This document shows positions 10,401 through 64,000 of a DNA stretch of 64,000 nucleotides, one piece after another. The translations under genes were made by a program, and so were the position numbers. Source of the stretch: an uncultured delta proteobacterium (lineage in GTDB: Bacteria > Desulfobacterota > Binatia > Binatales > Binataceae); assembly GCA_963808235.1 (NCBI GenBank), contig CAWEEQ010000004.1, positions 781,084 through 845,083 on the forward strand, in the 5' to 3' direction. The notes under the pieces were generated by a model. The model was not told the DNA's origin. It worked only from the letters and a program-made list of their open reading frames with translations, and did no database searches. How positions within the stretch are numbered: position 1 is the first letter of the stretch; each line of letters begins with the position of its first letter.

Positions 10401-10843
10401 TCGTAGCGGCGGACGGCGTCGATCATCAGCTTGAGTGCCGGATCGACGATCGCGCGAGCCTCTTCGGGATCCAAGTCCTGCTCCAACTCCGTCGATCCCT
10501 TGATGTCGGCGAACAGCGCCGTGATCGTCTTGCGCTCGCCCTCCAGATTTTCAGGGGCTGGTGTCTCAGCTACTAGAATCGGTGAGTCATTCGCTTTCTT
10601 TGCCGGGGCAGTGCCCGCGGGCGCTCCGAGCGCCGTGCCGCATTCGCCACAAAAGCGTTTGTCCGCTGGATTATCGGCGCCGCACTTCGGACAAAGATTC
10701 GCGAGCGCCGCGCCGCAATCACCGCAGAACTTCTTGCCGGCCGGATTTTCAGCTTTGCAATTCGAGCAGCGCATCGGCTTTGTCAGAAAAGATGAGCGAC
10801 TTGCCTCGTATATCACCGAGCGCGTTGAGGGACTAGCCGACAA
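7406..10843 (-). CDS. double zinc-ribbon / class III adenylate-guanylate cyclase / AAA (STAND) ATPase / TPR multidomain protein
   Basis: 1145 aa. N-terminus: CSNCKAENPAGKKFCGDCG...CPKCGADNPADKRFCGECG. Cyclase core: ERKTITALFADIKGSTEL...GDGIFALFGAP...RIGANTGEVVV. Walker A: AEAGTGKSRL. C-terminal half: TPR-like repeats. The real start may be the MRCSNCK Met at 10774. Confidence 0.85.
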   Translation of the reverse strand: MSASPSTRSVIYEASRSSFLTKPMRCSNCKAENPAGKKFCGDCGAALANLCPKCGADNPADKRFCGECGTALGAPAGTAPAKKANDSPILVAETPAPENLEGERKTITALFADIKGSTELEQDLDPEEARAIVDPALKLMIDAVRRYDGYIVQSTGDGIFALFGAPLAHEDHPQRALYAGLRMQEELKRYSAKLVAEGGRPIEARIGANTGEVVVRSISTGSGHVEYTPIGHTTNLASRMQAVAPTGSIAISEQTSKLVEGYFQLKPLGPTKVKGVTEPVNVYEVTGLGPLRTRLQRSAGRGLTKFVGREREMEAMRNASELTRVGRGQIVAAMAEAGTGKSRLFFEFKAKHQSGWMVLETFSVSHGKASAYLPTIELLHGYFRITSDDDVRTRREKVNGKVLTLDRSLEDTLPYLFVLLGIIEGDDPLAQMDGEVRRRRTLDAIKRILLRESMNQPLMVIFEDLHWIDEETQGFLNLLAESIGTAKILLLVNYRPEYSHQWNSKTYYIQLRLDPLGKESAEEMLSALLGDGTELAPLKRLIVEKTEGNPFFMEETVQVLFDENALVRDGGAVKLTRSLAALKIPPTVQAILAARIDRLPQDAKDLLQTLAVIGREFPLSLIRAVVSIPDDETRRLLDVLQLGEFIYEQPAIGDSEYTFKHALTLEVSYNSALMERRRQLHGRIGAALERLYANSIDDYLDELAHHYSRSGNSAKALDYLESAGLRAVRRLAYGEAMRNLTAALELLERTPSSPERDRREFALQTSLGPALMATKGWAAPETERAYLRAERLAETGATPEQQFALLVGLFGLLYVGGNLRGARERQKPIWDFVDRHPDPVFLLEAIHHDWSVALSAGELEASQRHVERGLKLFESKLRSAAVPLYTAHHPAVCGYAWDAQLSWLRGRPDAARRCAERAVSLANELGDAISAAFALYEKALVHRMMLEPKLALEIAGAAINAAEDVGFLYVLRHARVVKGWALTELGRAEEGIRQIREETDALSANREELWLTLSLATLADSCLRAGRIEHGLKAIGDALDLVRRSGECFWEAEINRLRGELLLGQSPSDPALARASVEHAIKKARQQGAKSLELRATTSLARILMSTDRRDEACAMLADIYNWFSEGFDTADLMDAKALLDELNA

Positions 10844-49884: not shown

Positions 49885-50718
49885 ATGAAGCGGCTCAGAC
49901 GCCCAAGAAAGCGAATTTTGGATGCTTCCGCCAGTCCGCCGGTGGAAAAGCCCTTGGAAATTCAGGCCCTTTTGAAGCTCTTTCCGACCCTCGAATCCGA
50001 AAAACTCAAACGGCTGGCCGGCGAGATGTCGTTGGTGCGATTCAAACGAGGCGATCGCATTCGCGTCGACACCCAGTCATCGACGGACGTACTGGTGGTT
50101 TTGAAGGGAGCGATCGCGATCACCTGGCAGCACGACAGCCGCCATCAGGTGCTGGTCACGATGCTCGCGCCGGGAGAAATGTACGCGGTTTCCACGCTGC
50201 TACCCGAGATGGCGCAAGGCCTGAAAGGCTGCGCATTCACCAGCAGCCTGGTAGCGACGATCGATTCGAAGAGGCTGGTGGAGATAGTTCTCGGCGTCGG
50301 GCTGGGAGCGTTCAAATCAGCGATGGAAATGACGGTTGGATGGTCGGCCGAAACGCTCATGCGATACATCAAGATGTTTCACATGGCGCCGCGCGATCGT
50401 CTAGTCATTGCGCTGATCGAGATGGGCGCAAAGTTCGGCGTGCGTGACTCGAGAGGCCTCATTCTGAATTTGCCGATGACTCAGAAGGACCTGGCCAACC
50501 TGCTGGGCGCATCGCGGCAAAAGGTCAACGCATACCTGGGCGAACTGGTGCGCATGGGAGCGGTGATCAATCTGAGCCGGCAGATCGTTCTGGTTCCGGA
50601 CAAGCTATTCGCGTTGGTCGGCGATCCCGATGTCCATTACTACAGCGCGCCGCACAAGCATTCGGTTGCCAAACCGCACGACCTCTCGTCGCATTCAAGA
50701 CGCGAGATGCATCTCTAA
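49885..50718 (+). CDS. Crp/Fnr-family transcriptional regulator
   Basis: cNMP-binding-like beta-roll (FKRGDRI...VLKGAIAI) and C-terminal HTH TQKDLANLLGASRQKVNAYLGELVRMGAV. Confidence 0.8.
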   Translation: MKRLRRPRKRILDASASPPVEKPLEIQALLKLFPTLESEKLKRLAGEMSLVRFKRGDRIRVDTQSSTDVLVVLKGAIAITWQHDSRHQVLVTMLAPGEMYAVSTLLPEMAQGLKGCAFTSSLVATIDSKRLVEIVLGVGLGAFKSAMEMTVGWSAETLMRYIKMFHMAPRDRLVIALIEMGAKFGVRDSRGLILNLPMTQKDLANLLGASRQKVNAYLGELVRMGAVINLSRQIVLVPDKLFALVGDPDVHYYSAPHKHSVAKPHDLSSHSRREMHL

Positions 50719-50844
50719 AAAGTTTGTTGCCGCGATCCGCGTGGAAATACTGCAACCGCGGGATCGCTTGACAGAACCTTGGCGCGCAATGTACTTTGCA
50801 TTGCAAAGCTATTTGCCGAATGGGCTCCTGGAATCGCCGACTAT

Positions 50845-51465
50845 ATGAAAGACCTGAACGAAGCGCTCACCGAGATCTCGGCGATTCGCGCGCAGATCGT
50901 ACGTACCGCGGAGTTTCGCGGCTATGGACCCGTGACTGTCGCGATGACCAGTCTCGTCGCGATCGCGGCTGCCGTGGTCCAGGCCCGATTCTTCACCGTC
51001 GCGGCGCATGACGTACGGATCTACCTGGCCGTATGGATCTCGACCGCCGCGATCGCGACCGGCCTTATTGGGTTCGAAATGGTGACTCGGTCGCGAACGA
51101 TCCATTCGGGTCTCGCCCAGGAGATGATCTTTCACGCCGTTGAGCAGCTCGTTCCATCGCTAATGGCCGGGGTCCTGATAATGGCCGTGCTAATCAGGGT
51201 CGCTCCTGAAGCCGTCTGGATGCTTCCCGGCCTGTGGCAGATCATCTTCAGCCTTGGCGTATTCGCCTCAGCGCGATTTCTGCCGCGAGCGGTGTTCGCG
51301 GTCGCGGCCTGGTATCTTGTCGCCGGCCTTGTTTGCCTCTCATGGGCTGCGGCCGAGCGCACGCTGTCGCCGTGGATGATGGGAATTCCATTCGGCGTCG
51401 GCCAGTTGCTGGCCGCGTCGATTCTGCAATGGAGTGAAACAGGTATCGATGGCTCAACCGAGTAA
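50845..51465 (+). CDS. integral membrane protein, unknown function
   Basis: About 206 aa; an amphipathic N-terminus followed by about 5 TM helices. Its 3' end overlaps the next gene. Confidence 0.5.
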   Translation: MKDLNEALTEISAIRAQIVRTAEFRGYGPVTVAMTSLVAIAAAVVQARFFTVAAHDVRIYLAVWISTAAIATGLIGFEMVTRSRTIHSGLAQEMIFHAVEQLVPSLMAGVLIMAVLIRVAPEAVWMLPGLWQIIFSLGVFASARFLPRAVFAVAAWYLVAGLVCLSWAAAERTLSPWMMGIPFGVGQLLAASILQWSETGIDGSTE

Positions 51466-51835
51466 AGACAAGCCGCGCGCGGGCCGCTTTTCATACGAAG
51501 GTCTCGACCGCGTGATCCACGAGCGGGCCCGGCTCAGCATTCTGACGTCTCTAATCGCCAACAAGCACGGTCTTTTGTTTGCCGATTTGAAGCGGCTCTG
51601 CGCGCTCAGCGACGGTAACCTGAGCCGCCATCTTCAGGTTCTTCAGGAGGCGAAATTGATCGCGGTATCCAAGGGCTTTGAAAAGAATCGGCCGCAGACG
51701 GCATGCCGGATCACCGCGCTGGGACGCGCACGCTACCTCGAATACCTCGAAGTTCTCGAGCAAGTGGTGCGCGATGCGGCGGCGGGGTTGAACGAACAGC
51801 CGCGTGGCGTAGCGGAGCGCCTAGCGCCGACCTGA
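51449..51835 (+). CDS. winged-helix transcriptional regulator (HTH_34-like)
   Basis: [57 protein letters not shown]; a GTG at 51434 is an alternative start. Confidence 0.7.
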
Positions 51836-51860
51836 GATTTTTTTAATTGGTTACTCTACG

Positions 51861-52622
51861 ATGCCAAGTACTCTACAATGCAATGCTAACCTTCACGTCG
51901 CAATTATCATGGATGGCAACGGACGCTGGGCCACCAGCCGCCGTCTGCCGCGCTCCGCTGGCCATCGCGCAGGCATCCAGGCGGTGCGCGCAGCGGTCGA
52001 GGCGGCGTTCGACTTCGGTATCAAAACGCTCACCCTGTTCGCCTTTTCCTCCGACAACTGGCTGCGACCTCGGGACGAGGTCAAGTCGCTGATGTGGATG
52101 CTTCGCGGCTACCTCCGCAGCGACACGCGCCGCTTCATCGAGAGTGGCTCGCGCGTGGTCGTGATCGGCCGCCGCGACCGCTTGCCGGCGTCCATCCGCG
52201 CGGAGATCCGTCGAATCGAACGCGCGACTGCGCACGGCCGACGCCTTACGGTGCGAGTCGCAATCGACTACTCCTCGCGGGATTCCATACTGCGGGCCGC
52301 ATCGAGGCTGCCCGCGGGGCGACTCTGGTCGCGCGAGGATTTCGCGCGCTTCCTGGTCGAGCCGCCTGCAATCGCCGATACCCGTCCGCCGCTCGATAGC
52401 GAGGTTGACCTGCTTATCCGAACCGGTGGCGAGCAGCGGCTTTCCGATTTCATGCTGTGGGAATCGGCGTACGCGGAACTGCTTTTCAGCGATCTGATGT
52501 GGCCCGAGTTCGGAGCCAACGAGCTCAAGTCGGCGGTTGAAGAGTTTCATCGCCGCGAGCGGCGCTTCGGAACCCTCATAATTTCCAAACCCAACGCGGC
52601 CTTCGCGCCAGGAGAATCATGA
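51861..52622 (+). CDS. uppS: isoprenyl transferase (undecaprenyl-diphosphate synthase)
   Basis: [55 protein letters not shown] are the cis-prenyltransferase signatures. Confidence 0.92.
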
Positions 52623-53434
52623 ATCGATCAACGCAGGATTGGGTGGATCACTTTCGCTGGAACGGTTCGGTTGCGATGCGCATCCCATGGCATATCGGTC
52701 CCGATTTGAGCGATGAGGAACGGGCTGCGATCTCTCATTCAATCCAGATGTTCCAGCTCGGAGAGAACTCGGAGGGTCGGCATCTGATGCGCTACGCGAA
52801 AGAGTGGGCCGCCCGCACCGGCGACATCGCCTACCCGGAGGCGATCAGGATGCTGATCGTCGAAGAACAGCGCCACGCCGGTGTGCTGGGCCGCTTCATG
52901 GAGGTCAATGGAATTGCGCGCGTCAAAGGCGGCTGCACCGACGGAGTTTTCCGACGGGTGCGAAATATGTTCGGCACGCTGGAGATCTCGATCAGTGTCC
53001 TGGTGACGGCCGAGATCATCGCGAAGATTTACTATCCGGCATTGAGCGAGGCGACCGCGTCGATCGTCCTGCGCGAAATTTGCAAGCAGATTTATCGTGA
53101 GGAAATTGCGCACGTGGAGTTCCAAACCGAGCAACTGGCGCGCATCCGGGCCGGGCGGAATGCGTCGGGCATGTGGGCGACCCGCTTTTTTCACCGCGCG
53201 CTCTTCTATCCGACCGTCATCGTAGTCGGCGCGTCTCATCAGATGACGTTGCGCCGCGGCGGTTTATCGCTGCGGCAGTTCTTCTCGCGATGCCACCGGC
53301 AATTCGTGCGCGACCTTGCCGCGATGGAACCGGACCGGAACTCGCGCCGGAGCGAAGGGCGCGCTATCGAGACCCGAGGAAAAGTGCCTATCGAGGATCT
53401 TCCGTCAACTGCGATTCACAACATTCAGTCATAA
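52619..53434 (+). CDS. ferritin-like (diiron-carboxylate type) protein, unknown function
   Basis: 271 aa. Two ExxH motifs ([16 protein letters not shown]) sit about 95 residues apart in predicted helices. ATGA overlap with uppS. Confidence 0.5.
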
Positions 53435-53852
53435 TTCTATGACATATAGTTAGCACCAATCCGCGCCACCGAGTCGTAAGGATCCTCGCGATCGATCACC
53501 CCAATAGCTGGATTCGCGAACATCAGCGCGTCCTCGCGGGTATCGCCGGCAGGGCGCTGAAGCCCTGAGCCATGGCGACGCGCTCCGTCGTACCATTAGC
53601 TACGCCGCGTTTCGATTGCTCGATAGAAAGCCCGATCGCCAATCCAGTCAATATCGTTGAGTGTCAACGCGGCGACACTTTCTAGCTTTTCTTAATTTTT
53701 AGGTACAGGATTAATTGAAATCCACCCTTCCCCTTGTGTACCTACTTCACCCAAGACATTTCGAGAATTCGACTGCGGATTGTGTCCTTAGCGCGTTGAC
53801 CTGTTGACCGGTGCCGGCGTGTGTAGGGCGAGAGCTGGGGAGTAGCTCTGGT

Positions 53853-55274
53853 ATGGCAGATCGGTCGCGATGGCAGATTCCGGTTACAACGGTACCCGCA
53901 ATCGTACTTGTGTTGCTTGGTTACGATGGCTTGAACTCGCTCATTGGGGGAGCGCAGGCGATCGTTCCAACGCTGACTTACGTTTCAACATCGAATGGCG
54001 CGACCTTTTTCGTATCTCTTGATGGCAGAGATTCGGGGGCGGGTAGCTCGGGTTCTCCGTGGCGGACGATTCAAAAAGCGGCCGACACGTTGCAGCCCGG
54101 GCAGACCGCGATAGTAGCGGCCGGCAACTACGGCGAGCGGGTGGAGATTTCGCATTCGGGGACGCGGACGGCTCGGATCACATTACGAGCCGCGAGCGGT
54201 GCGGACGTTCAGCTCCTGGGCTTCGATCTTACCGGAAGCAACTGGGTGCTGAGCGGGTTTGATATCTCCACCCGCAGGAACGGGCGCCAGGGCTATGGGA
54301 TCCACGTGTCCGGTTCGGCCTCGCACGACATTATTCAGAACAACTACATCCATGAACTTTGCCGCGAGGGGATTTTCATGGAGTCGGGAGTCTCGTACAT
54401 TTCGGTTCTCAACAACCGCATCTGGCGGGCCGAGATGGCGGGTGCGCAGGTCGACGGCACCGACGACCTGATCGAAGGCAACGAAGTCTGGGGAACTCAG
54501 CAGGAGCCGGTCCGGGCCGGTGGAATCTATTCGGGATGCGTAACGCCCGACGGCGCCGACGCGGACGCGTTCCGCTTCTTCGGGCAGCATAACGTGTTCC
54601 GATCCAACTACGCGCACGACGTCTACACCGCGTTGCCGACCAACCCCGATCCGCATACCGACTGCTTTCAGACCTGGGGCAGCACCGCGATGAAGGTGGA
54701 CGACATCCTCATCGAGCGAAACGTCTGCCGCTGGCCGGTCGCGTCGACCAAGGTGGACGCGTCGACCGCGATGATCGAGGGAATCGACGGGCCGGTGGGA
54801 ACAGTGACCTTCCAGAACAACCAACTGTCGAATATGCGGCAGGGGATTGTCGTCGGGAATAAGGTCGAGGCGCTGAAGATCTACAACAACACCTGGGACC
54901 ACATCGTGGAAGAAGCGCTGATCTTCAACGACACGAGATCTCCTGCCGACGAGATCATCAACAATATTTTCTATGACGTCGGCGCTGGCGGCGATGCTTA
55001 CGCGTCGGTTCCGAGCGGCAGCCCGCTCTTCCGGAGCAACGTCTTCTACATGCCGGGCGGTGCCAGCGTTGGCACTTATCCGAGCGTGGAGCCCTATACA
55101 AGCGTCGATCCGAGGTTCGCCAACCCCGGCGACTCGACCGGTGCCGGCGCCGATCTGCATCTCCAGGAAAGCTCGCCGCTCAAGCGCTCCGGGGTAACGC
55201 TTCCCCAGGTTACCGATGACTACTACGGAACCAGCCGCGCCGGTGCGGCGTACTCAGTGGGTGCCGCGCGATGA
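53853..55274 (+). CDS. secreted right-handed parallel beta-helix protein (module-family gene A)
   Basis: Signal/anchor VTTVPAIVLVLLGY. FFVSLDGRDSGAGSSGSPWRTIQKAADTLQPGQTAIVAAGNYGE is a DUF1565/pectate-lyase-fold entry. Repeated N..I....G turns follow. A GTG at 53811 is an alternative start. Confidence 0.72.
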   Translation: MADRSRWQIPVTTVPAIVLVLLGYDGLNSLIGGAQAIVPTLTYVSTSNGATFFVSLDGRDSGAGSSGSPWRTIQKAADTLQPGQTAIVAAGNYGERVEISHSGTRTARITLRAASGADVQLLGFDLTGSNWVLSGFDISTRRNGRQGYGIHVSGSASHDIIQNNYIHELCREGIFMESGVSYISVLNNRIWRAEMAGAQVDGTDDLIEGNEVWGTQQEPVRAGGIYSGCVTPDGADADAFRFFGQHNVFRSNYAHDVYTALPTNPDPHTDCFQTWGSTAMKVDDILIERNVCRWPVASTKVDASTAMIEGIDGPVGTVTFQNNQLSNMRQGIVVGNKVEALKIYNNTWDHIVEEALIFNDTRSPADEIINNIFYDVGAGGDAYASVPSGSPLFRSNVFYMPGGASVGTYPSVEPYTSVDPRFANPGDSTGAGADLHLQESSPLKRSGVTLPQVTDDYYGTSRAGAAYSVGAAR

Positions 55275-55508
55275 TTGTCACTATGGGGACACCGTCGCGC
55301 GCAGTCGGCCGTGGACGGGCAGACCGGTTGCGCGATCCCTCATGTGTCAGGGGCGTAGCCTCTCTGCGACAGTTTGTTGCACCTTCCGCAAACAAGGAAC
55401 CAGTTGTCTTAGTGAGTTGTAGCGAATCACTACAACGCGCAACGGCACATTTCGTGCTCCGCAGACTTGTTGGATTCTCGCGTCGCTTTAGGTTGATCGG
55501 GTTCGCAT

Positions 55509-55583
55509 CGGAGCGTTGCTGTCGCTCCGGTGCGGACCAATTCAAAGCTCCAGCCGGAGCGTTGCTGTCGTTCCGGCGCGGAC
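55509..55583 (+). repeat. two copies of a 29-bp hairpin-forming direct repeat
   Basis: cggagcgttgctgtcgctccggtgcggac (55509-55537) and cggagcgttgctgtcgttccggcgcggac (55555-55583). Each folds as CGGAGCG-TTGCTGT-CG(C/T)TCCG. Confidence 0.85.
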
Positions 55584-55721
55584 GGAAACAAACGGAGCGC
55601 GCCGGCAAATGCCCCGCGCTCAGGGGAAAAGGAGTGCGACACTGATGTATCGGTAACTTGCGATGGAGTGCTGTCCATCGCAGGTACCGATCCCACATTG
55701 CACCAAAGCGTTTTTAAGTCA

Positions 55722-55755
55722 GGCGCCACGTGTTGCCTTTAGTGATCGTGGCGTC
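55722..55755 (+). promoter_or_regulatory. conserved 5'-UTR stem-loop upstream of gene B (second copy at 58031-58064 upstream of gene C)
   Basis: GGCGCCACG-[tgttgcctttagtgat]-CGTGGCGTC versus GGCACCGCG-[tgttgcctttagtggt]-CGTGGTGCC: a 9-bp stem kept by a compensatory G-C to A-T change and wobble swaps. GGGGGAG RBS follows. Confidence 0.55.
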
Positions 55756-55772
55756 GGGCTTGGGGGAGAAAA

Positions 55773-57860
55773 ATGGCAACAGAAAAGGCCTTGGGCCTGC
55801 GCAGGCTAATCCTTGTCGCGGCGATCGGATTTCTTCTGATCCTGCTCGGTCACAGCCGGGCATACGCTGCGAGTCCCATCCACATTAACAAACCGGCACC
55901 CGACTCGGTCGTCTCCGACTTGGTGACCACGCTGGTTCGGGTCAAGCCGAAGGTCGCCAAGATAGTTTTCATGCTCGATGGCAACCCGCTGTCGACCACT
56001 ACCTCAACCAGCTTCACCTGGAATTCGGCGACGGTTGCGAACGGGATGCATACCATCGCCGCCAGCGCCTACTCTTCATCCAACCAGTTGCTGAAGACGG
56101 TCACCGAGCAAATCAGAGTTGCGAACAAAAAACCTCCTCCGCCGACTCGTACTCCGACGCCAACCTCCACGCCGACGGCCACCCCGGTGCTTTCGTTCGT
56201 GTCTCCGACCAGCGGGCAGACGCTCAGCGGATCGATAAGCGTCGCGCTGTCATTCTCGAGCCCACCATCGCAAACCAACCCTGGCGCGGTTTGGTGGACC
56301 GAATTGTCCGTCGACGGTGCACCGGTGGTTTCCGGATACAACAATTTGCCCTGGGACACGACCACGGTCGGCAACGGATCGCATACCTTGCGCGTGGATG
56401 GTTACGCGTACAACGGGACAACTTCGATCGGCAATGCGACCATCAACGTGACGGTCAACAACTCGGGCGTAACCGCAACTCCGACGGCTTCATCGACGCC
56501 CACGATCGGCCCGACGCCGACCGTGACCGCTACACACACGGGCACCCCAACCACCGCTCCGACGCCGACTGCGACACGAACGGCGACTCCGACTCTCGGC
56601 GCGACACCGACTGCGACGTCCACCCTGCACGCGACCCCGACTGCGACGTCAACGCCGGGCGGATGCGTCAGCATCACGGCACCGGCTCCCAGCGCGACCG
56701 TCAATGGCATCGTGGCCATCAACACTAACGACACTTGCTCAGGCGCCTGGTTTGAATCGCTCTACGTCGACGGCGCGCATGTTTCCGACTTTCCGGTCGG
56801 ACAGATCATGTTCACGAGCACTAGCTACGCCAACGGGATGCACACCATCCAGGTGACCAGCCAGAGCACCAATCCGGGTTCGGTCCAGCTTGGCAGCGCG
56901 TCCGAAGCGTTGAACGTGCAGGCGGGTTCGGCGACCAAGACAGCCACCGCGACGCCTACCACGAAGCCGAGCGCGACGCCGACGCCGGGAGGGGGCCATT
57001 ACTCAATGATGGGACCCGGAGCGTCTCTGCCGAGCGAAGCGGCTTGCGTCAGCGCGGTGAACGCGTCGCCTATTCCGGAGAACGCGCCGTGGAACCAGGA
57101 CGACGGCACCGGCTTTAACTCGAATCTGCCTCCATCCGGCGGTGTGCCGGCGTACTTCTACGCCAACGCGCCGTGCTGCAACGAATTGCCGCATGCGGAT
57201 TTTGCCAACGTCGACGGAAACTATTCGGGCTCCACAGATGACCTCATCCGAATCACCGCCTGCAAGTGGGGTATCGACGAAGACTACGTGCGCTCGCAGG
57301 CGTGGATCGAATCCGATTGGCATCAGGACTGCTCCGCGGCGCATGGCGGCTCCGACTGTCAGGAAGGCGGCGATATGGACAGCCCGAGCGGCGATCCGTC
57401 AGGCCTGGCGGTCACTTCGATATCGCCGGGAGGCGTATTCAGCGCCTTCAACGGATTTGGAAATCCCGGCGGCCCAACCGATCACTGGGATTCGTGGAGC
57501 ATCGTTCAGACCAAGGTGTACTACGAGTGGATGACGTGGCCGATGATGGAGGAGTCCACGCCTTTCGGGCTCGATTTTCGCTACGCGGAGATGCGCGGTT
57601 GCGTCAACGGCGATCAATATAGCTACTACAATAGCCAGTCATCCGCGCAGGGCACTGACTATCAGAATGCCGTCAATGCCGCCCGCAACAATCCGAACGG
57701 AGCATCGGCAGTCACAGGCTGGACCAACCTTCAGTACCTTTCGTACGGATGCATCGACACCCACTTTTCCGGCGACTGGTTCAACGGCACAGCCGACAGC
57801 TATCTGAACGAGTTCCTGAACAGGTTGGCAACCGCACCGTGGCCGGGCGGTCTGCAGTAG
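55773..57860 (+). CDS. secreted multidomain protein: 3 Ig-like modules, Thr/Pro linkers, Cys/Trp-rich C-terminal domain (gene B)
   Basis: Signal peptide ...LLILLGHSRAYAA. Three roughly 90-aa modules end in ...NGMHTI/NGSHTL... Linkers are TPTPTSTPTATP-type. The C-terminal roughly 310 aa contains AWIESDW ... WSIVQT and is otherwise unassigned. Confidence 0.7.
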   Translation: MATEKALGLRRLILVAAIGFLLILLGHSRAYAASPIHINKPAPDSVVSDLVTTLVRVKPKVAKIVFMLDGNPLSTTTSTSFTWNSATVANGMHTIAASAYSSSNQLLKTVTEQIRVANKKPPPPTRTPTPTSTPTATPVLSFVSPTSGQTLSGSISVALSFSSPPSQTNPGAVWWTELSVDGAPVVSGYNNLPWDTTTVGNGSHTLRVDGYAYNGTTSIGNATINVTVNNSGVTATPTASSTPTIGPTPTVTATHTGTPTTAPTPTATRTATPTLGATPTATSTLHATPTATSTPGGCVSITAPAPSATVNGIVAINTNDTCSGAWFESLYVDGAHVSDFPVGQIMFTSTSYANGMHTIQVTSQSTNPGSVQLGSASEALNVQAGSATKTATATPTTKPSATPTPGGGHYSMMGPGASLPSEAACVSAVNASPIPENAPWNQDDGTGFNSNLPPSGGVPAYFYANAPCCNELPHADFANVDGNYSGSTDDLIRITACKWGIDEDYVRSQAWIESDWHQDCSAAHGGSDCQEGGDMDSPSGDPSGLAVTSISPGGVFSAFNGFGNPGGPTDHWDSWSIVQTKVYYEWMTWPMMEESTPFGLDFRYAEMRGCVNGDQYSYYNSQSSAQGTDYQNAVNAARNNPNGASAVTGWTNLQYLSYGCIDTHFSGDWFNGTADSYLNEFLNRLATAPWPGGLQ

Positions 57861-57877
57861 TCGGCGAAAACGAAACA

Positions 57878-57914
57878 GTTGGGGGCGACTGGATACTCAG
57901 TCAGCGCCCCCAAC
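57878..57914 (+). terminator. GC-rich hairpin after gene B (candidate terminator, no U-tract on + strand)
   Basis: gttgggggcgact-ggatactc-agtc(ag)cgcccccaac, 18 nt after the stop. A second hairpin aaatgtc-actgtgga-gacattt lies at 57914-57935. Confidence 0.45.
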
Positions 57915-58082
57915 AAATGTCACTGTGGAGACATTTAGATAGTCAATAACGATAGTCAGAACCAGGCTGGAACGAGGTCCGATAGTAGGCGCTGGCTGTA
58001 GATTGCCGGGGAATTGGGTTTTTTAAGCCAGGCACCGCGTGTTGCCTTTAGTGGTCGTGGTGCCGGGCTTGGGGGAGAAAAA

Positions 58083-60323
58083 ATGGCAACGGAAAAGGCC
58101 TTGGGCCTGCGCGGGCTGCCGCTTGTCGCGACGGTCGGACTGTTTCTTATGCTGCTCGGTCACGGCCAGGCTTACGCGGCGGGTCCCATCCACATTAATG
58201 CGCCGGCCCCGGACGCGGTCGTCTCCGACATGGTGACGACATTGGTTCGGATCAAGCCGCAGGTCGCTCGGGTAGTTTTCCTGCTTGACGGCAACCTGTT
58301 GGCGTCGACTTCGTCCACCAGCTACACGTGGGATTCGGCGACGGTTGCGAACGGTATGCATACCATCGCGGCCAGCGCCTATACTTCATCCAATCAGTTG
58401 CTGCGCACTGTCTCCGAGCGAATCAGGATTGCGAACAAGCATAAACCGACTCCAACCCCCACTCCGACCACCACGCCGACTGTTACTGCCACTGCCACGA
58501 CCAACCCCACACCGACCGCGACTGCCACCTCGACACGGACGAGGACTCCAACTGTCACCGCGACGACGACCGCGAGTGCCACTGCGACACGAACGGCGAC
58601 TGCGACTGGGACACGAACGGCGAGCCCGACCCCGACTGCGACGTCAACGCCGGGCGGATGCGTCAGCATCACGGCACCGGCTCCCAGCGCGACCGTCAAT
58701 GGCATCGTGGCCATCAACACCAACGACACTTGCTCAAGCGCCTGGTTTGAATCGCTCTACGTCGACGGTGCGCATGTTGCCGATTTTCCGGTCGGACAGA
58801 TCATGTTCACGAGTACGAACTACGCCAATGGAATGCATACCATCCAAGTGACCAGCCAGAGCACCAATCCGGGTTCGGTCCAGCTTGGCAGCGCGTCCGA
58901 AGCGTTGAACGTGCAGCCGGGCGCCACGGCCACGCCGACATCAACCGCGACGCCAACGGCGACCTCCACATCGACTTCGTCGGTCCAGCCGACCCCGACG
59001 GCCACGTCGACGCCCAACGGCTCGACGTTCTACGTATCGCCAACCGGTAGCGACTCGGCGTCTGGCAGTTCGGGCTCACCATGGCGCACGATTCAGAAGG
59101 CAGCGGACACGCTGCTGGCGGGACAGACTGCGATCGTATCGGCAGGCAACTACGGCGAGCGCGTCTCGATCTCGCGCTCCGGCACGTCGTCCAGTCCGAT
59201 CACCTTGCAGGTCGCAAGCGGTGCGGATGCCCAACTCCTCGGCTTCGATCTCACAGGCAGCAACTGGGTTCTGGACGGCTTTGACATCTCGACCCAGACC
59301 AATGGCAGCGAAGGGTACGGGATCCACGTAGACGGTTCGGCCTCGTATGACACGATTCAGAACACCTATATCCATGAACTCTGCCACGAGGGCATTTTCA
59401 TGGAGTCAGGGGTCTCGCACATCTCGGTGCTGAACAACCGCATCTGGCGGGCCGAGATGGCAGGTGTGCAGGCCGATGGCGTGTACGATCTGATCGAGGG
59501 CAACGAAGTCTGGGACACTCAGCAGTATGCGATGAATGCGGGTGGAATTTACTCGGTGTGCACGATTGCCGGCGGCGCCGATGCGGACGCGTTCCGCTTC
59601 TTCGGCCAACATAATGAGTTCCGTTCTAACTACGCACACGACATTTACCACGATATGCCAGGCGATCCGCATCCTACCAATCCCAATCCTCACACCGATT
59701 GCTTCCAAACTTGGGGGAACTCTGCAATGACGGTGAGCGATATTCTATTTGATCGCAACCTTTGTCGCTGGCCAGGAACTAATCAATTTCAGCTTGCAAA
59801 TATAAATTCTACAACGCTTGCAAACATTGGGGTTAATGAAGGCGCAGTAACTAACTTAACCTTTCAAAACAACATACTCTCCAATTCAGGACAGGGAATA
59901 GATATTGAAGGTGGCGTTGGTCCAGTAAACGCTTATAACAATACTTTTGTTCATATAGCGCAGGAAGGATTAGTTTGTAATGGCGCTCGTACATCAGCGG
60001 ACCAGATCATGAACAACATTTTCTACGATGTTGGCGATGGTGGTGATTCGTACACTTCAGGCTGTCAGAATTCAACATTCAATAATAATGACTTCTACAT
60101 GCCGGGCGGCGTCAGCGTCGGCACCTATCCGAACGTCGAGCCGTACCTGAGCCTCGATCCGTTGTTCGTCAACTTCGGCGACGCGACCGGCGGCGGCGGG
60201 GATTTCCATCTGCAGTCCGGCTCGCCGCTAAAAGGCGCCGGGACCACGGTCTCGACCGTCACCAATGACTACTACGGCACCAGCCGGGTGGGGGCAGCAT
60301 ACTCAGTCGGCGCCGCTCAATGA
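58083..60323 (+). CDS. secreted multidomain protein: 2 Ig-like modules, Thr/Pro linkers, beta-helix domain (gene C)
   Basis: The N-terminus is colinear with gene B (MATEKALGLR...). The second Ig-like module is nearly identical to module 3 of gene B. The C-terminal roughly 440 aa is colinear with gene A (STFYVSPTGSDSASGSSGSPWRTIQKAADTL...). Confidence 0.75.
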   Translation: MATEKALGLRGLPLVATVGLFLMLLGHGQAYAAGPIHINAPAPDAVVSDMVTTLVRIKPQVARVVFLLDGNLLASTSSTSYTWDSATVANGMHTIAASAYTSSNQLLRTVSERIRIANKHKPTPTPTPTTTPTVTATATTNPTPTATATSTRTRTPTVTATTTASATATRTATATGTRTASPTPTATSTPGGCVSITAPAPSATVNGIVAINTNDTCSSAWFESLYVDGAHVADFPVGQIMFTSTNYANGMHTIQVTSQSTNPGSVQLGSASEALNVQPGATATPTSTATPTATSTSTSSVQPTPTATSTPNGSTFYVSPTGSDSASGSSGSPWRTIQKAADTLLAGQTAIVSAGNYGERVSISRSGTSSSPITLQVASGADAQLLGFDLTGSNWVLDGFDISTQTNGSEGYGIHVDGSASYDTIQNTYIHELCHEGIFMESGVSHISVLNNRIWRAEMAGVQADGVYDLIEGNEVWDTQQYAMNAGGIYSVCTIAGGADADAFRFFGQHNEFRSNYAHDIYHDMPGDPHPTNPNPHTDCFQTWGNSAMTVSDILFDRNLCRWPGTNQFQLANINSTTLANIGVNEGAVTNLTFQNNILSNSGQGIDIEGGVGPVNAYNNTFVHIAQEGLVCNGARTSADQIMNNIFYDVGDGGDSYTSGCQNSTFNNNDFYMPGGVSVGTYPNVEPYLSLDPLFVNFGDATGGGGDFHLQSGSPLKGAGTTVSTVTNDYYGTSRVGAAYSVGAAQ

Positions 60324-60372
60324 TGGGCGCGGAGGAGATCGAAGATAGTCAATAGCTATAGTCAGAATCAGT

Positions 60373-61695
60373 TCAGAGCGACGTCCGGTAATAGTGAATC
60401 GATTGCCGCAACCCGCCTCCGAGGCGGGTGCGGATGTACCCCAGCATCTCATTCGTCAGCAGGTACTTGGGGCGCAGATAAACGCCGCCATTGTTGAGCG
60501 AGAACAGGATGCGGTGGAATTTCCAGTTGTTGAAATTGCGCAGCAGCCGGAACCGCGCCGATACTCCCAGCGTCTGTATCCCGAAAGGGAACTTGAAGCC
60601 AAACCAAAGCGGCTGAGAATTGATCGCCAGGTCGGGCTCGGTCGAATTGTCTATTTCCTCGAGCGAACCCTCCGCCAACCTGAACCTGACCGTCTTGTCG
60701 AGGTCGGGTATCTGAATAGTCACTGGACGGAGCATCCGTAGCAGGAGCATCGAGTATTTGTCGCGCATCTGCGCGGCAAGACCGTCGTAAGCGGCAACAA
60801 TTTCAGGCATCGATTTGCTCTCGACCGGATCGTACGTGCGCTCATCGACGCTCGGCAGTTGATCGAATCGCGTCAGCGCATCCGACGAATCGTGTTCGGC
60901 GCCAACTTCGTAGATATCCCCCGGATACAGCACCACTGCGCGCTGACCTTGGCGGCTTAAATAATTGGCGGCGTCGCGCGCGGAATTCGCAAAATTATTG
61001 ACGTACTTGTTGTCGAGGCTCGAAAAGTAGATGAAGCTCGCAAACGGGATTGTCGCTTTCGCATCCAGGCCGCGATGCACTGAAGATACATTTTCGAGAA
61101 TCTGCGCAGCTCGCTGCGGCAGAAATTTCTCATGCGGCTCAAAGCCGGCGTAGGCGGCCAGCGAGAACTGATTAAGGAGAACATCGACGCGTCCGATGTC
61201 GTGCAGGATGCCCTTGCATTCGCCGGCGCTGATGCGTGCGTCGTTGGCGTTGAAGATGACTTGTCCTTTACTCAGTACCGCCAGCGCGGAGTCCATTATC
61301 CCGGCGTGATAGCAATATACTTTCGTCGCATCGGGCTTGCTGCTCAGCGATACGATCATCCGATGCGGCAGCCGCTGAAATCGCTCATAGCCAAGCTTGC
61401 GAAACGCCGCGAACATCTTTGTGTAATCGCGATCCTGAAAGAGGATCGTCACCCGCGCTTTGAAGTCAGCCGGAAATGATCCGAGGGTCGGGAAGTGACA
61501 ATGATCGGGATGCTCGTGCGAGATCCAGATGTACTCGACCTTGTCGAGCACCGCCTGGTCGAACTTTGGTTCCGGCAGCAGAGTCCATGAGTCGTTGAAA
61601 ATTTTTCCGAATAGCCAGGGATCCATCAGGATCGACGTGTCGGCGCATTCCGCGACGATGCATGCATGTCCGACAAAGTGAATTTTCATGAGCAC
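60373..61695 (-). CDS. MBL-fold metallo-hydrolase with long C-terminal extension (paralog 1)
   Basis: 440 aa; KIHFVGHACI...DPW...IWISHEHPDHCH (HxHxDH). The roughly 300-aa C-terminal part has no family I can name. Confidence 0.65.
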   Translation of the reverse strand: MLMKIHFVGHACIVAECADTSILMDPWLFGKIFNDSWTLLPEPKFDQAVLDKVEYIWISHEHPDHCHFPTLGSFPADFKARVTILFQDRDYTKMFAAFRKLGYERFQRLPHRMIVSLSSKPDATKVYCYHAGIMDSALAVLSKGQVIFNANDARISAGECKGILHDIGRVDVLLNQFSLAAYAGFEPHEKFLPQRAAQILENVSSVHRGLDAKATIPFASFIYFSSLDNKYVNNFANSARDAANYLSRQGQRAVVLYPGDIYEVGAEHDSSDALTRFDQLPSVDERTYDPVESKSMPEIVAAYDGLAAQMRDKYSMLLLRMLRPVTIQIPDLDKTVRFRLAEGSLEEIDNSTEPDLAINSQPLWFGFKFPFGIQTLGVSARFRLLRNFNNWKFHRILFSLNNGGVYLRPKYLLTNEMLGYIRTRLGGGLRQSIHYYRTSL

Positions 61696-62109
61696 TCTCC
61701 GGCAGATTCTGGAGGTCTCGCTTGGGCGTCTCTGAGTGTGGTTCCTAGAGCACGCCGCTTGCCCTAAAAGCGTAACATTAAAGTTTAGTCAAGGCAAATC
61801 AGTATAGGTCAATCTATTTAAAGTCACTCTCGATATTGACTAATTCTCAACTCACGTTAATTTAACTAGATTTTTGTTACTTGTGCTAGCTTCTAAAATC
61901 TGTTACTTTGGACCTAAGCCATTTGCAAGGGCCAGTGAGCGAGAAATGGTAAGAGAAACGGGATGTTTCAGGTCAATCTGGCCGTCAGTGTCGCAAACTT
62001 TGAACAAGGAACCGGGCTTGAGCGCTCGCAACATGCTTGAGCCGATAACATCTGTATCCAATGGGAAAGGGGGCGGCGTGGAGGAACACGGCCGCCGGGG
62101 GTTTAACCC

Positions 62110-63513
62110 GTGAAAGTGACCCTGGTTTCGCATGCTTCGGTGATAATTGAGTCACAAGGAGTCAGAATTTGGACTGACCCGTGGCTCACGGGCAAAGTCT
62201 TCAATGAATCGTGGTCGCTGTTTCCGCCGGCGGCATTTGATCCTGCGATGCTTGATTCGATCGACTACCTGTGGATTTCGCACATTCATCCGGATCACTT
62301 CCACATTCCAAGCCTGAATTCGCTTTCCCCGCAGTTCAAACGCCGGGTCAAGGTCCTGTTCCAGGACAATCACGCCGATCAACTTTTCGAAGTGATGAAA
62401 AAGTGCGGATACCAGAACTTCCAGGCGCTGCGGCATCGCCGGATGGAGTCTCTCAGCGAGCACACGTCAGTCTACTCCTACAGCGCCGGGACCCTGGATT
62501 CCTGCCTGGGCGTGATGGAGCCGGAAGGGGGCTTGTTCAACATCAACGACTCGCGGCTGAATGCGACCGATTGTCGTCGTGTGAAGTCGGACATGGGGCG
62601 GATAGACACGGTGCTGAGCCAGTTTTCGCTGGCGGTCTATAATGGTCTTCAACCGCGCGAATCTCATCTGCGCCGCGGCGCGGCGGCGATGTTGGAAAAG
62701 ATTTTCGATAATCACGCGAACCTGGGCGCCCGGATCACGATTCCGTTCGCGAGCATGATGCGTTTTTCGCTGGTCGACAATCGTTACATGAATGCATTTG
62801 CGAACCGTCCGCGCGACGTGTGGGAACATGCCGCCGTACGAGGTCTCGGGGTGGCGATCCTGTTCCCGGGCGACACTTACAATTCATCCACCAGCTACGA
62901 TTCGACCCAGGCGCTTGAAAAATACGACGCGGTCTACGAGACCATCGACCAGTTTCCCTACGACACGCCGGCGGCGGTCCCGCTGCAGCCGATCGAAGAA
63001 GCTTTCCACGAGATGGTACGCCATTTGCGTGAAAAGTATCCCGCGCCGATACTTCGGATGCTGCGCGGGGTGGTGGTGAAGTTGCCCGACCTCGACAAGA
63101 CCGTGGCGTTTTCGATTCCGGCCGACTCCTTCAGCGAAGTCGATTCGTCAGAGTCGCCCGACATCTTGATGTGTTCGCAGGCCCTGCATTTTTGTTTCTT
63201 CCGTCCGTACGGGCTGCAGACGCTCTCGAGCTCGGCGCAGCATACCGTGGTGCGCAACCTGGCGAATTGGCGGATCCATCGCGCGCTGTTCGCGCTGAAC
63301 AATGCGCAGGCATACGGCCGACTCCGCTATCTGCTTCGCCGCGACACCATAAGTTTTTTCGCGAAAAGAATTAGAGCCATGGTCCGTTACACCGACCTCA
63401 CCCACGCCCGGCTCAGATATCCGTACAGCTATAAGCCAAAGCATCACTCCAGCATCCCAACTGAGGCGGGGCAGGTAATGGGTCCGTTGGATCGATCCGG
63501 GCATTCGGAGTGA
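62110..63513 (+). CDS. MBL-fold metallo-hydrolase with long C-terminal extension (paralog 2)
   Basis: 467 aa, GTG start; KVTLVSHASV...DPW...LWISHIHPDHFH. Colinear with 60373-61695 over the whole length (LNQFSLA / LSQFSLA, IPFAS, PDLDKTV). Confidence 0.65.
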   Translation: MKVTLVSHASVIIESQGVRIWTDPWLTGKVFNESWSLFPPAAFDPAMLDSIDYLWISHIHPDHFHIPSLNSLSPQFKRRVKVLFQDNHADQLFEVMKKCGYQNFQALRHRRMESLSEHTSVYSYSAGTLDSCLGVMEPEGGLFNINDSRLNATDCRRVKSDMGRIDTVLSQFSLAVYNGLQPRESHLRRGAAAMLEKIFDNHANLGARITIPFASMMRFSLVDNRYMNAFANRPRDVWEHAAVRGLGVAILFPGDTYNSSTSYDSTQALEKYDAVYETIDQFPYDTPAAVPLQPIEEAFHEMVRHLREKYPAPILRMLRGVVVKLPDLDKTVAFSIPADSFSEVDSSESPDILMCSQALHFCFFRPYGLQTLSSSAQHTVVRNLANWRIHRALFALNNAQAYGRLRYLLRRDTISFFAKRIRAMVRYTDLTHARLRYPYSYKPKHHSSIPTEAGQVMGPLDRSGHSE

Positions 63514-63540
63514 GAAGCCTGAGATGTGAGAGTGACTGAG

Positions 63541-64000
63541 ATGATTGAGAAGAATAGGTACATTGCGATTACCCCGGCCCGCGACGAAGAGCAATTCCTT
63601 CCCGGGCTGATCAGCAGCATGGCGGCGCAAACGCGCTTGCCGCAACGATGGATAGTCATTGACGACGGCTCGGTCGACAGGACCGCGCAAATCCTTGACG
63701 GGGCGGCGCGGCAGTACCACTGGATCGAGCCGGTGCATCTCGCGCGAAATCGTCCCCGGCAAGCCGGCGGCGAATCGGTGATCATGCAGTTCCTGCCGCG
63801 CGAAGCATGGCAGGACGTCGATTTTGTCTTCCGGCTCGACGCCGACTTGAGTTTCGAGCCGCAGTTCGTGGAGCTGATGCTCAGAGAATTCGCCGCGAAT
63901 CCGAAGCTCGGAATCGCCGGCGCTACGCTCTACGAGCCGGCCAACGACAGCTGGCGTGCGGTGCCGGAGTTTCATGCGTTCCACACTCGCGGCGCCACCA
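63541..64000 (+). CDS. glycosyltransferase family 2, 5' fragment (runs off the window)
   Basis: Not in the ORF track because it has no stop. IAITPARDEEQFLPGLISSMAAQT..PQRWIVIDDGSVDRT...FRLDADL (GT-A DxD). GTG 63526 and GTG 63532 are alternative starts. Confidence 0.75.
   Translation, partial: MIEKNRYIAITPARDEEQFLPGLISSMAAQTRLPQRWIVIDDGSVDRTAQILDGAARQYHWIEPVHLARNRPRQAGGESVIMQFLPREAWQDVDFVFRLDADLSFEPQFVELMLREFAANPKLGIAGATLYEPANDSWRAVPEFHAFHTRGAT

Follow-up and report, generated by a model that had tools for sequence, protein, structure and literature searches.

A covarying hairpin with a conserved loop in the 5′ leaders of paralogous secreted-protein genes beside an exopolysaccharide cluster of an uncultured Binataceae bacterium

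The DNA analysed here, called the window throughout, is a 64-kb stretch (64,000 nucleotides) from an uncultured bacterium of the Binataceae. Downstream of an exopolysaccharide (EPS) cluster it carries three genes, A, B and C, and the leaders of B and C each fold into a long hairpin, which is the subject of this study. Gene B (55773–57860, forward strand) encodes a signal peptide (MATEKALGLRRL...AYAA), a Big_7 immunoglobulin-like (Ig) domain, more Ig-like modules and, at the C terminus, a conserved domain of unknown function, for which no relative was found in Pfam or the PDB. Gene C (58083–60323, forward strand) begins with the same signal peptide and Big_7 domain and continues into a right-handed β-helix resembling DUF1565 and PL9 (Pel9A). 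Gene A encodes a right-handed β-helix of the same type as that of gene C.

The leaders of B and C are homologous over 63 nt with 90% identity (55711–55773 against 58020–58082, family D5 of the repeat finder), in agreement with the first-pass annotation of this DNA, which had described a shared segment of about that length. In the pairwise alignment the homology sets in abruptly at the T-run of the hairpin base and extends into the coding region. The hairpin of gene B spans 55716–55761 on the forward strand and is documented by sequence, RNAfold, a covariance model (92.4 bits) and pair counts. Its lower stem, AAGUC/GGCUU, joins 55716–55720 with 55757–55761; its core is a 9-bp stem with the 5′ arm GGCGCCACG at 55722–55730 and the 3′ arm CGTGGCGTC at 55747–55755, closing the 16-nt loop TGTTGCCTTTAGTGAT (55731–55746). 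The hairpin of gene C occupies 58025–58070 of the same strand (sequence, RNAfold, covariance model 90.8 bits), with the lower stem AAGCC/GGCUU, the core arms GGCACCGCG (58031–58039) and CGTGGTGCC (58056–58064), and a 16-nt loop at 58040–58055. The 9-bp stem and 16-nt loop proposed for both leaders are borne out by sequence and by folding. RNAfold gives −27.5 kcal/mol for leader B (z −4.39) and −32.8 kcal/mol for leader C (z −4.68), and in neither case was any of 200 dinucleotide shuffles as stable. The pairs said to differ between the two copies differ as described, B and C reading, in that order, G-C and A-U at position 4, G-U and G-C at position 2, and A-U and G-U at position 7. A 20-nt pattern centred on the loop occurs in the 64 kb just at the B and C sites, with a chance expectation of 0.

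In both leaders the 3′ arm is followed by GGGCTT, the Shine-Dalgarno (SD) sequence GGGGGAG, a run of A and the ATG. The first-pass annotation had set the stem 17–18 nt from the ribosome-binding site (RBS); the actual gap between the 3′ end of the stem and the SD is 6 nt. For gene B, on the forward strand, the SD (55762–55768), the A-spacer and the ATG (55773–55775) make up a block at 55762–55775 that is invariant in all nine leaders compared below. For gene C the SD lies at 58071–58077 and the ATG at 58083. RNAfold extends both hairpins downward to a length of about 20 bp, first through AAGYC/GGCUU and beyond that by setting UUUUU against the GGGGG of the SD. The U-run of leader B (55711–55715, forward strand) is thereby paired with the G-run of the SD, a pairing confined to the window copies and missing from the relatives.

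The two window copies alone are weak evidence of selection, because the 5′ part of B appears to have been gene-converted from C. The two genes are mosaics (B 55773–56132 and 56634–56927 against C 58083–58442 and 58629–58922) and share one Ig-like module at 96% protein identity. Window B carries the Big_7 of C as its first domain, a place taken by ASH in the orthologues L007B (L007 7647–9740) and L011B from other contigs, which are numbered L001 onward. At four-fold degenerate sites of the first 120 codons, B and C are 0.71 identical, versus 0.53 in the orthologue comparison. Gene conversion is active in this gene family, and it is the comparison across lineages that establishes selection on the pairing.

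Seven further distinct leaders were obtained from contigs of soil metagenomes, making nine of the B/C type: window B and C, L001, L007B, L007C, L011B, L011C, L017 and L018. A DNA pattern scan of JGI metagenomes returned 10 matches, three of them true homologues (L007, L009 and L011) and seven due to chance; the L009 sequence equals that of L007. Protein searches followed by contig look-up supplied L001, L017 and L018, and also yielded a second type of leader, S2, in L002, L019, L020 and L021. L007 and L011 each have two leaders, one before the B orthologue and one before the C orthologue. The loci are syntenic, with the EPS cluster, a Crp-like regulator and gene A followed by the leader-bearing genes.

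The nine leaders align unambiguously, and a hairpin of 15 pairs was counted over the alignment. Both sides have changed in 4 of the 15 pairs, and 4 more show one-sided G-U variation. Column 8-48 in the lower stem reads C-G, U-A or U-G. Column 14-42, which is position 4 above, reads A-U, G-U or G-C, with the G-U intermediate in L007B and L011B. Column 15-41 (stem position 5) passes from C-G to U-A in L007C, and column 19-37 (stem position 9) from G-C to A-U in L001, L017 and L018. Position 12-44 is mismatched in four leaders. Overall, 87.8% of the cells are paired, versus 30–60% when the 3′ partners are slid; the covariation score was reached by none of 500 shuffles and the number of double-changed cells by one of 500. 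RNAalifold, applied independently, also gave the upper 7 pairs. With a covariance model derived from the alignment (R1), the nine leaders score 58–92 bits. Leaders without covariation had been named at the outset as the observation that would count against a functional RNA; the further leaders covary with pairing kept, an outcome that favours the hairpin and supports the functional sense-strand RNA that the first-pass annotation had proposed.

The element belongs to the coding strand. The sense strand folds better than the antisense (RNAfold means of −18.7 and −14.5 kcal/mol), and G-U cells number 8 against 3 A-C cells, which points to an RNA of the coding strand rather than a palindrome in the DNA. 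Between the window and the L007 lineage, which are near saturation at four-fold degenerate sites, leader identity from the hairpin to the ATG is 0.78–0.91, compared with 0.49–0.54 at such sites in the adjoining genes. A coding explanation is ruled out by leader indels of 1, 5 and 13 nt; a leader peptide encoded across the hairpin was accordingly rejected, its frame not being conserved. Conservation is not confined to the stem, since 13 of the 16 loop bases are invariant in seven of the nine leaders. In L011C the stem is retained and the loop has shrunk to 6 nt. These comparisons show that a GC-rich stem, with a 9-bp core and about 4 lower pairs, is maintained by selection on the sense strand 0–6 nt 5′ of a strong SD, and that the sequence of the 16-nt loop is itself conserved. 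Compensatory changes, the sense strand and a fixed position relative to the RBS are the marks of a structured cis-regulatory hairpin in a 5′ untranslated region (UTR), and all three are found here.

The leader travels with the start of the protein. A signal peptide of the form MAT[RE]xAxxLRRL...GRAYAA begins the genes behind all nine leaders, even where the N-terminal domain of the mature protein differs. This suggests that leader and signal peptide form a module set before differing mature domains by repeated gene conversion or recombination of 5′ gene ends. Among GTDB species representatives, the protein scan found no relative and the DNA pattern scan gave four chance matches (L003–L006); no leader was found in viral contigs. 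Homologues of the C-terminal domain of B at up to 80% identity are labelled Candidatus Binataceae, which places the window probably in the candidate phylum Binatota. Its distant homologues L022 (72% identity) and L023/L024 (52%), the last from a Binataceae metagenome-assembled genome, have neither leader nor signal peptide. Since the distant homologues and the viral contigs lack the leader, the element is confined to a narrow clade.

Gene A had been described as lacking the element. This holds for the hairpin, as R1 finds no match in the gene A leader, and does not hold for homology altogether, as a diverged homologous leader is present at 53770–53855 (forward strand) with the motif GCGCGTTGACC, a degenerate form of the conserved motif, the SD GGGGAG at 53839–53844 and the ATG at 53853. 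Gene A probably starts at this ATG (MADRSRWQIPVTT..., MADRSRWQ...) and not at the GTG 53811 of the list of open reading frames (ORFs). The A-type leader and the first 8 codons are homologous to the S2 genes (L002, L019, L020 and L021) and to the A orthologues in L007, L017 and L018. The S2 genes look like an A-type 5′ region with 11 codons fused onto a C-type gene. Their leaders (L002 780–905; L019 9900–10050; L020 430–575; L021 1080–1220) adopt a different and longer fold, in which ACAGAAUUUCCGUCC pairs with GGACGGGGG...UUCUGU, burying the SD and spacer, and the GUUGCC motif lies inside an inner hairpin. The four sequences are too alike for covariation to be assessed.

The conserved loop has a possible partner at the start codon. 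The start codon and codons 2–4, with the sequence (AU)GGCAACAC(G), are complementary to the 5′ half of the loop, (C)GUGUUGCC. In gene B, on the forward strand, GGCAACA at 55775–55781, which comprises the G of the ATG and codons 2–3, complements the loop bases UGUUGCC at 55731–55737; it is a candidate second helix of a pseudoknot, with covariation that is not significant. In gene C, GGCAACG at 58085–58091 (within the start region 58071–58091, forward strand) complements the loop, one of the pairs being G-U. Long RNAduplex comparisons of the leader with the coding sequence were uninformative, and the longest complement and the loop-only duplex were used instead. Of all Watson-Crick complements between the leader and the early coding sequence, the loop/start match (7–9 nt) is the longest in 10 of 15 leaders and ties for first place in one more. 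It measures 7–9 nt in seven of the nine B/C-type leaders; among the four S2 leaders it is 8 nt long except in L021 (6 nt). The loop-only duplex reaches about −11 kcal/mol in six of the nine leaders, an energy that shuffled loops attain in 1–8% of trials. When the entire leader is folded, the long-range loop/start helix is itself the minimum-energy structure in L007B and L011B. One loop/start pair is U-A in most leaders, U-G in window C and C-G in S2. In L011C, where the loop is deleted, the partner GCA has become GUU; in L017 loop and partner are both altered, to UAUUGCC and the codons GCAUCU; and in the A-type leaders loop motif and partner codons are likewise altered together. That the two segments are kept or lost together suggests a pseudoknot at the start site.

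We consider the hairpin to be a cis-acting translational operator, probably working either through a pseudoknot of loop and start site or through a factor that recognizes the loop, and give this reading a probability of about 0.4. According to this model, the hairpin in the 5′ leader of mRNAs for paralogous secreted Ig-domain and β-helix proteins beside the EPS cluster would act in cis on translation initiation. The pre-formed loop would present its 5′ half to the start region, giving an H-type pseudoknot with a stem 1 of 9–13 bp, a stem 2 of 7–9 bp and the SD in the connecting strand of 19–25 nt. In this fold the start site would be inaccessible to the 30S subunit, and the translation rate would be set or switched by it. 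The conserved loop may also dock a protein or small RNA acting in trans that stabilizes or opens the fold. A role in translation is favoured by the position of the hairpin, which adjoins the invariant SD and ATG in all nine leaders.

Several observations weigh against this operator model. Covariation of the loop/start helix is not significant: its score is matched in 100 of 500 shuffles, and its percentage of paired cells is the same as the shuffle average. The single compensatory event in the helix is shared by descent. The joint losses of loop and codons could be general decay, the L017 sequence being from a long-read assembly prone to errors. In S2 the partner lies 36 nt 3′ of the start codon in use and is therefore unable to mask it. 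The proposed pseudoknot would leave a tight 0–1 nt for its loop 1. The U/C tract upstream sequesters the SD no more strongly than shuffled sequence does. A consensus scan found no sigma-70-like promoter in the A-B or B-C spacers, so that the hairpin could be either 5′-terminal or within a polycistronic RNA. Finally, no candidate for an RNA-binding regulator was found in the window with Pfam. A small RNA complementary to the loop was also sought nearby, and no further good reverse-complement match exists in the window.

Established RNA families and common repeat types offer no assignment. A cmscan of Rfam 15 over 50000–64000, with E up to 10, gave two weak and irrelevant matches, neither on the hairpins, and the whole window at gathering score gave two tRNAs only. 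An intrinsic terminator or attenuator was rejected, as there is no U-tract, the 3′ arm being followed by GGGCUUGGGGGAG, and the terminator scan reports no site at the hairpins. A dispersed repeat of the REP or MITE kind was rejected as well: R1, applied to the window and 10 loci (148 kb) as the covariance-model search that had been suggested, finds the nine paralogue leaders and nothing else, with none in L022–L024. A weak R1 match at 61908–61960 is noise.

The main rival to the operator is a hairpin that stabilizes or processes the mRNA. Situated at the 5′ end of a transcript, whether primary or processed by RNase, or very close to that end, it would block decay that depends on the 5′ end and so allow A, B and C to be expressed differentially from one transcription unit. 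We regard this as possible and yet rather doubtful. The stem is stable, GC-rich and under selection, the B/C homology begins exactly at the hairpin base, and the stem of L011C is kept despite a loop of 6 nt. The lack of a sigma-70-like promoter in the spacers is consistent with read-through transcripts that need processing, as is a terminator-like hairpin only about 20 nt from the leader hairpin in L007 and L011; in several leaders, moreover, the SD is more open with the hairpin than with a shuffled upstream sequence. What this explanation has no need of is a 16-nt loop with 13 bases invariant in seven of the nine leaders, and the complementarity to the start region is left unexplained. Conserved blocks also reach 150–200 nt upstream in B-type leaders, suggesting that the hairpin is internal to a longer leader. 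That the hairpin has no function, its similarity being a by-product of recent duplication or gene conversion of 5′ gene ends, is extremely unlikely. Gene conversion is indeed active, as seen in the 96% shared module, in Big_7 in B versus ASH in the orthologues and in the four-fold identities of 0.71 versus 0.53. Orthologous leaders are nonetheless 0.78–0.91 identical where neutral sites stand at about 0.5, stem substitutions preserve pairing, and B-type and C-type leaders both persist in both lineages. Nor are the metagenome contigs strains nearly identical to one another, which would have revived this reading.

Other explanations assign the hairpin to a different step or a different molecule. 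Specialized NusG paralogues act on leaders of polysaccharide loci, and the hairpin might be the site of such a factor in transcription elongation or termination (RfaH at ops, LoaP at a leader hairpin, UpxY) or of another RNA-binding antiterminator. A conserved loop on a covarying stem, in and beside an EPS locus, would suit this role; we think it quite improbable all the same, given that no ops-like GGCGGTAG is present, that Pfam detects no NusG/KOW, ANTAR or CAT/PRD protein in the 64-kb window, and that the hairpin is followed directly by SD and ATG with no terminator. A thermosensor or switch of the fourU type, in which a helix between the 5′ U-run and the GGGGG of the SD opens with temperature or on ribosome standby, is suggested by the fold of about 20 bp in window B and C, with an SD unpaired probability of 0.22–0.25, and by the pairing of UUUCCGUCC with GGACGGGGG in the S2 leaders. 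It becomes very improbable once the relatives are considered: a conserved weak helix over the SD, made by a U-run in fourU elements and by U(U/C)GCU in ROSE elements, is not seen among them, as the U-run/SD helix is confined to window B and C, and columns 5-51 and 6-50 are paired in only 4–6 of the nine leaders. The SD is unpaired with a probability of 0.15–0.31 in nine of 12 leaders and of 0.62–0.74 in L001, L007B and L011B, which lack the outer helix, and the predicted fold is little altered at 15 °C. Shuffled upstream sequences pair the SD as much as the native ones or more in every leader, and in five leaders the native SD is more open than in 92–98% of shuffles. With no excess of SD pairing over shuffles, neither trapping of the SD nor a fourU thermometer is supported as a conserved feature. 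The G-rich SD pairs with nearly any pyrimidine-rich sequence upstream, and the hairpin, if anything, locks such sequence away. An element acting as DNA is highly unlikely, be it a palindromic operator for the nearby Crp/Fnr or helix-turn-helix (HTH) regulators or a sigma-54 promoter. An inverted repeat does lie near the gene start, the locus has a conserved gene for a Crp/Fnr regulator, and L001 reads TGGCAC-N7-TTGC, which looks like TGGCAC...TTGC. Yet the arms (GGCRCCRCR and YGYGGYGYC) change by compensatory and G-U steps and keep no half-site consensus; they stand 16 nt apart, unlike TGTGA-N6-TCACA or TTGAT-N4-ATCAA, and the strand preference of fold and G-U pairs given above points to RNA. 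The spacing from GG to GC is 11 nt in B, C and L007B and 12 nt in L001, not the GG-N10-GC (TGGCAC-N5-TTGC) of sigma-54, in which GG and GC are invariant; four leaders have another sequence instead of the GG (GTC in L007C and L011C, GAC in L017 and L018), and TTGC is deleted in L011C. A bolder extension of the operator model, which we hold to be improbable, is that the pseudoknot is the sensor of an undescribed class of riboregulator, binding a small molecule or a dedicated protein, for instance one reporting the status of the EPS or cell envelope, and switching the translation of secreted polysaccharide-active enzymes. The functions listed in the first-pass annotation, namely translation, stability and regulator binding, all stand, and the data only rank them.

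The sequence farther upstream of gene B is also conserved. About 200 nt are about 81% conserved with L007 and L011, and the regulatory region or leader of B may be long. At 55595–55625 (L007 about 7503–7530), some 150 nt upstream of the B-type ATGs, RNAalifold predicts a conserved hairpin GCGCGCCGGC...GCCCCGCGC with two pairs double-changed. A 28-nt element, GGAGCGTTGCTGTCG(C/T)TCCGG(T/C)GCGGAC, stands in tandem at 55510–55537 and 55556–55583 and contains a small hairpin, GGAGCG...CGCTCC; it has no other copy in the window, and one related copy stands conserved upstream of the genes with the leader in L007, L011, L001, L017 and L018. At 55623–55656 an SD-like GGGGAAAAGGAG is followed by the mini-ORF ATG TAT CGG TAA (55645–55656), about 120 nt 5′ of the B ATG. 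Its counterparts read ATG CAC CGG TAA in L007B and L011B, ATG CAC TGA in L001, GTG CAT TGG TAG in L018 and GTG AAT TTG TAG in L017, and it may be either a chance feature or a translated start-stop element. A perfect 8-bp hairpin, GCGATGGA-GTGCTG-TCCATCGC, at 55660–55681 lies in about 26 nt, in two blocks, that are extra relative to L007B and L011B. The motifs TTGTAC and GAC(A/T)TTT(C/A)G were seen by eye to recur during the promoter search, and no promoter is claimed from them.

The EPS cluster upstream of A-B-C is of the Wzx/Wzy type, with Poly_export, GNVR, AAA_22+LysM, a sugar transferase, a flippase and glycosyltransferases, together with Wzy_C, a deacetylase, methyltransferases, UppS, a Crp/Fnr-family regulator (49885–50718) and an HTH_34 regulator. 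The reverse strand encodes, at 7406–10843, a large adenylate/guanylate cyclase that also has AAA_16, TPR and zinc-ribbon domains. It lies about 39 kb from the cyclic-nucleotide-binding Crp/Fnr regulator, of which it is a possible signalling partner. The 3′ flanks of B and C share a 52-nt repeat (57937–57988 and 60343–60394, 79% identity) with two copies of GATAGTCA. Upstream of this repeat and past the stop of B, a strong hairpin, GTTGGGGGCG...CGCCCCCAAC, lies at 57880–57916 with no U-tail. Downstream of A-B-C are two Lactamase_B_3 genes of the metallo-β-lactamase fold (60373–61695, reverse strand; 62110–63513, forward strand); the same pair is syntenic in L017 (11826–15657), one member being fused there to Glycos_transf_2.

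The hairpin is a new RNA motif, having no Rfam family, of a familiar kind: a structured leader close to the RBS, present in a narrow group of uncultured soil bacteria, whose exact function we infer. If confirmed, it would offer a first candidate for control after transcription in the uncultured soil phylum Candidatus Binatota; a limited keyword check of the literature found no account of RNA regulation in this phylum, and a combination of Binatota with exopolysaccharide returned nothing relevant. A compact RNA of about 75 nt, supported by covariation, travels here with a conserved signal-peptide module before differing mature domains, in genes for secreted β-helix and Ig-domain proteins next to an EPS cluster. 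The case also illustrates that two paralogous copies are weak evidence where gene conversion is active. Its wider importance is limited by the narrow distribution and by the ordinary category of an RBS-proximal hairpin.

Known leaders resemble the hairpin in different respects. In the fourU thermometer of Salmonella agsA a U-run pairs with the purines of the SD at the base of a hairpin, as in the two window copies; here the relatives do not keep the pairing, and it is no greater than in shuffled controls. The 5′ UTR hairpin of ompA and the leaders of Bacillus aprE and ermC place a stable GC-rich hairpin 5′ of the RBS, and the retention of the stem in L011C with its loop deleted recalls them. 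Those hairpins, however, need no conserved loop and must sit a few nucleotides from the 5′ end, whereas conservation here runs 150–200 nt upstream. The preQ1-I/II, SAM-II and guanidine-III riboswitches share with the present element a compact hairpin and a conserved loop, and their helix from the loop to the 3′ tail by the initiation region has a candidate counterpart here. They differ in that no Rfam match is obtained here, the gene context suggests no ligand, the stem is unusually long, the loop is large, and the element comes from a few closely related soil contigs. The operator pseudoknot of E. coli rpsO (S15) has no sequence relation to the hairpin, and where rpsO codes for a ribosomal protein, the genes here encode secreted polysaccharide-active or Ig-domain proteins. 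The present element has no known protein ligand, its stem 1 is much longer (9–13 bp), and its second helix rests on conservation, one compensatory event and co-loss. In its proposed architecture the element nevertheless resembles this operator: a hairpin just 5′ of the SD has a loop that could pair with bases at and immediately after the start codon, the SD would be left in the connecting strand, and the predicted effect is control of 30S binding or activation.

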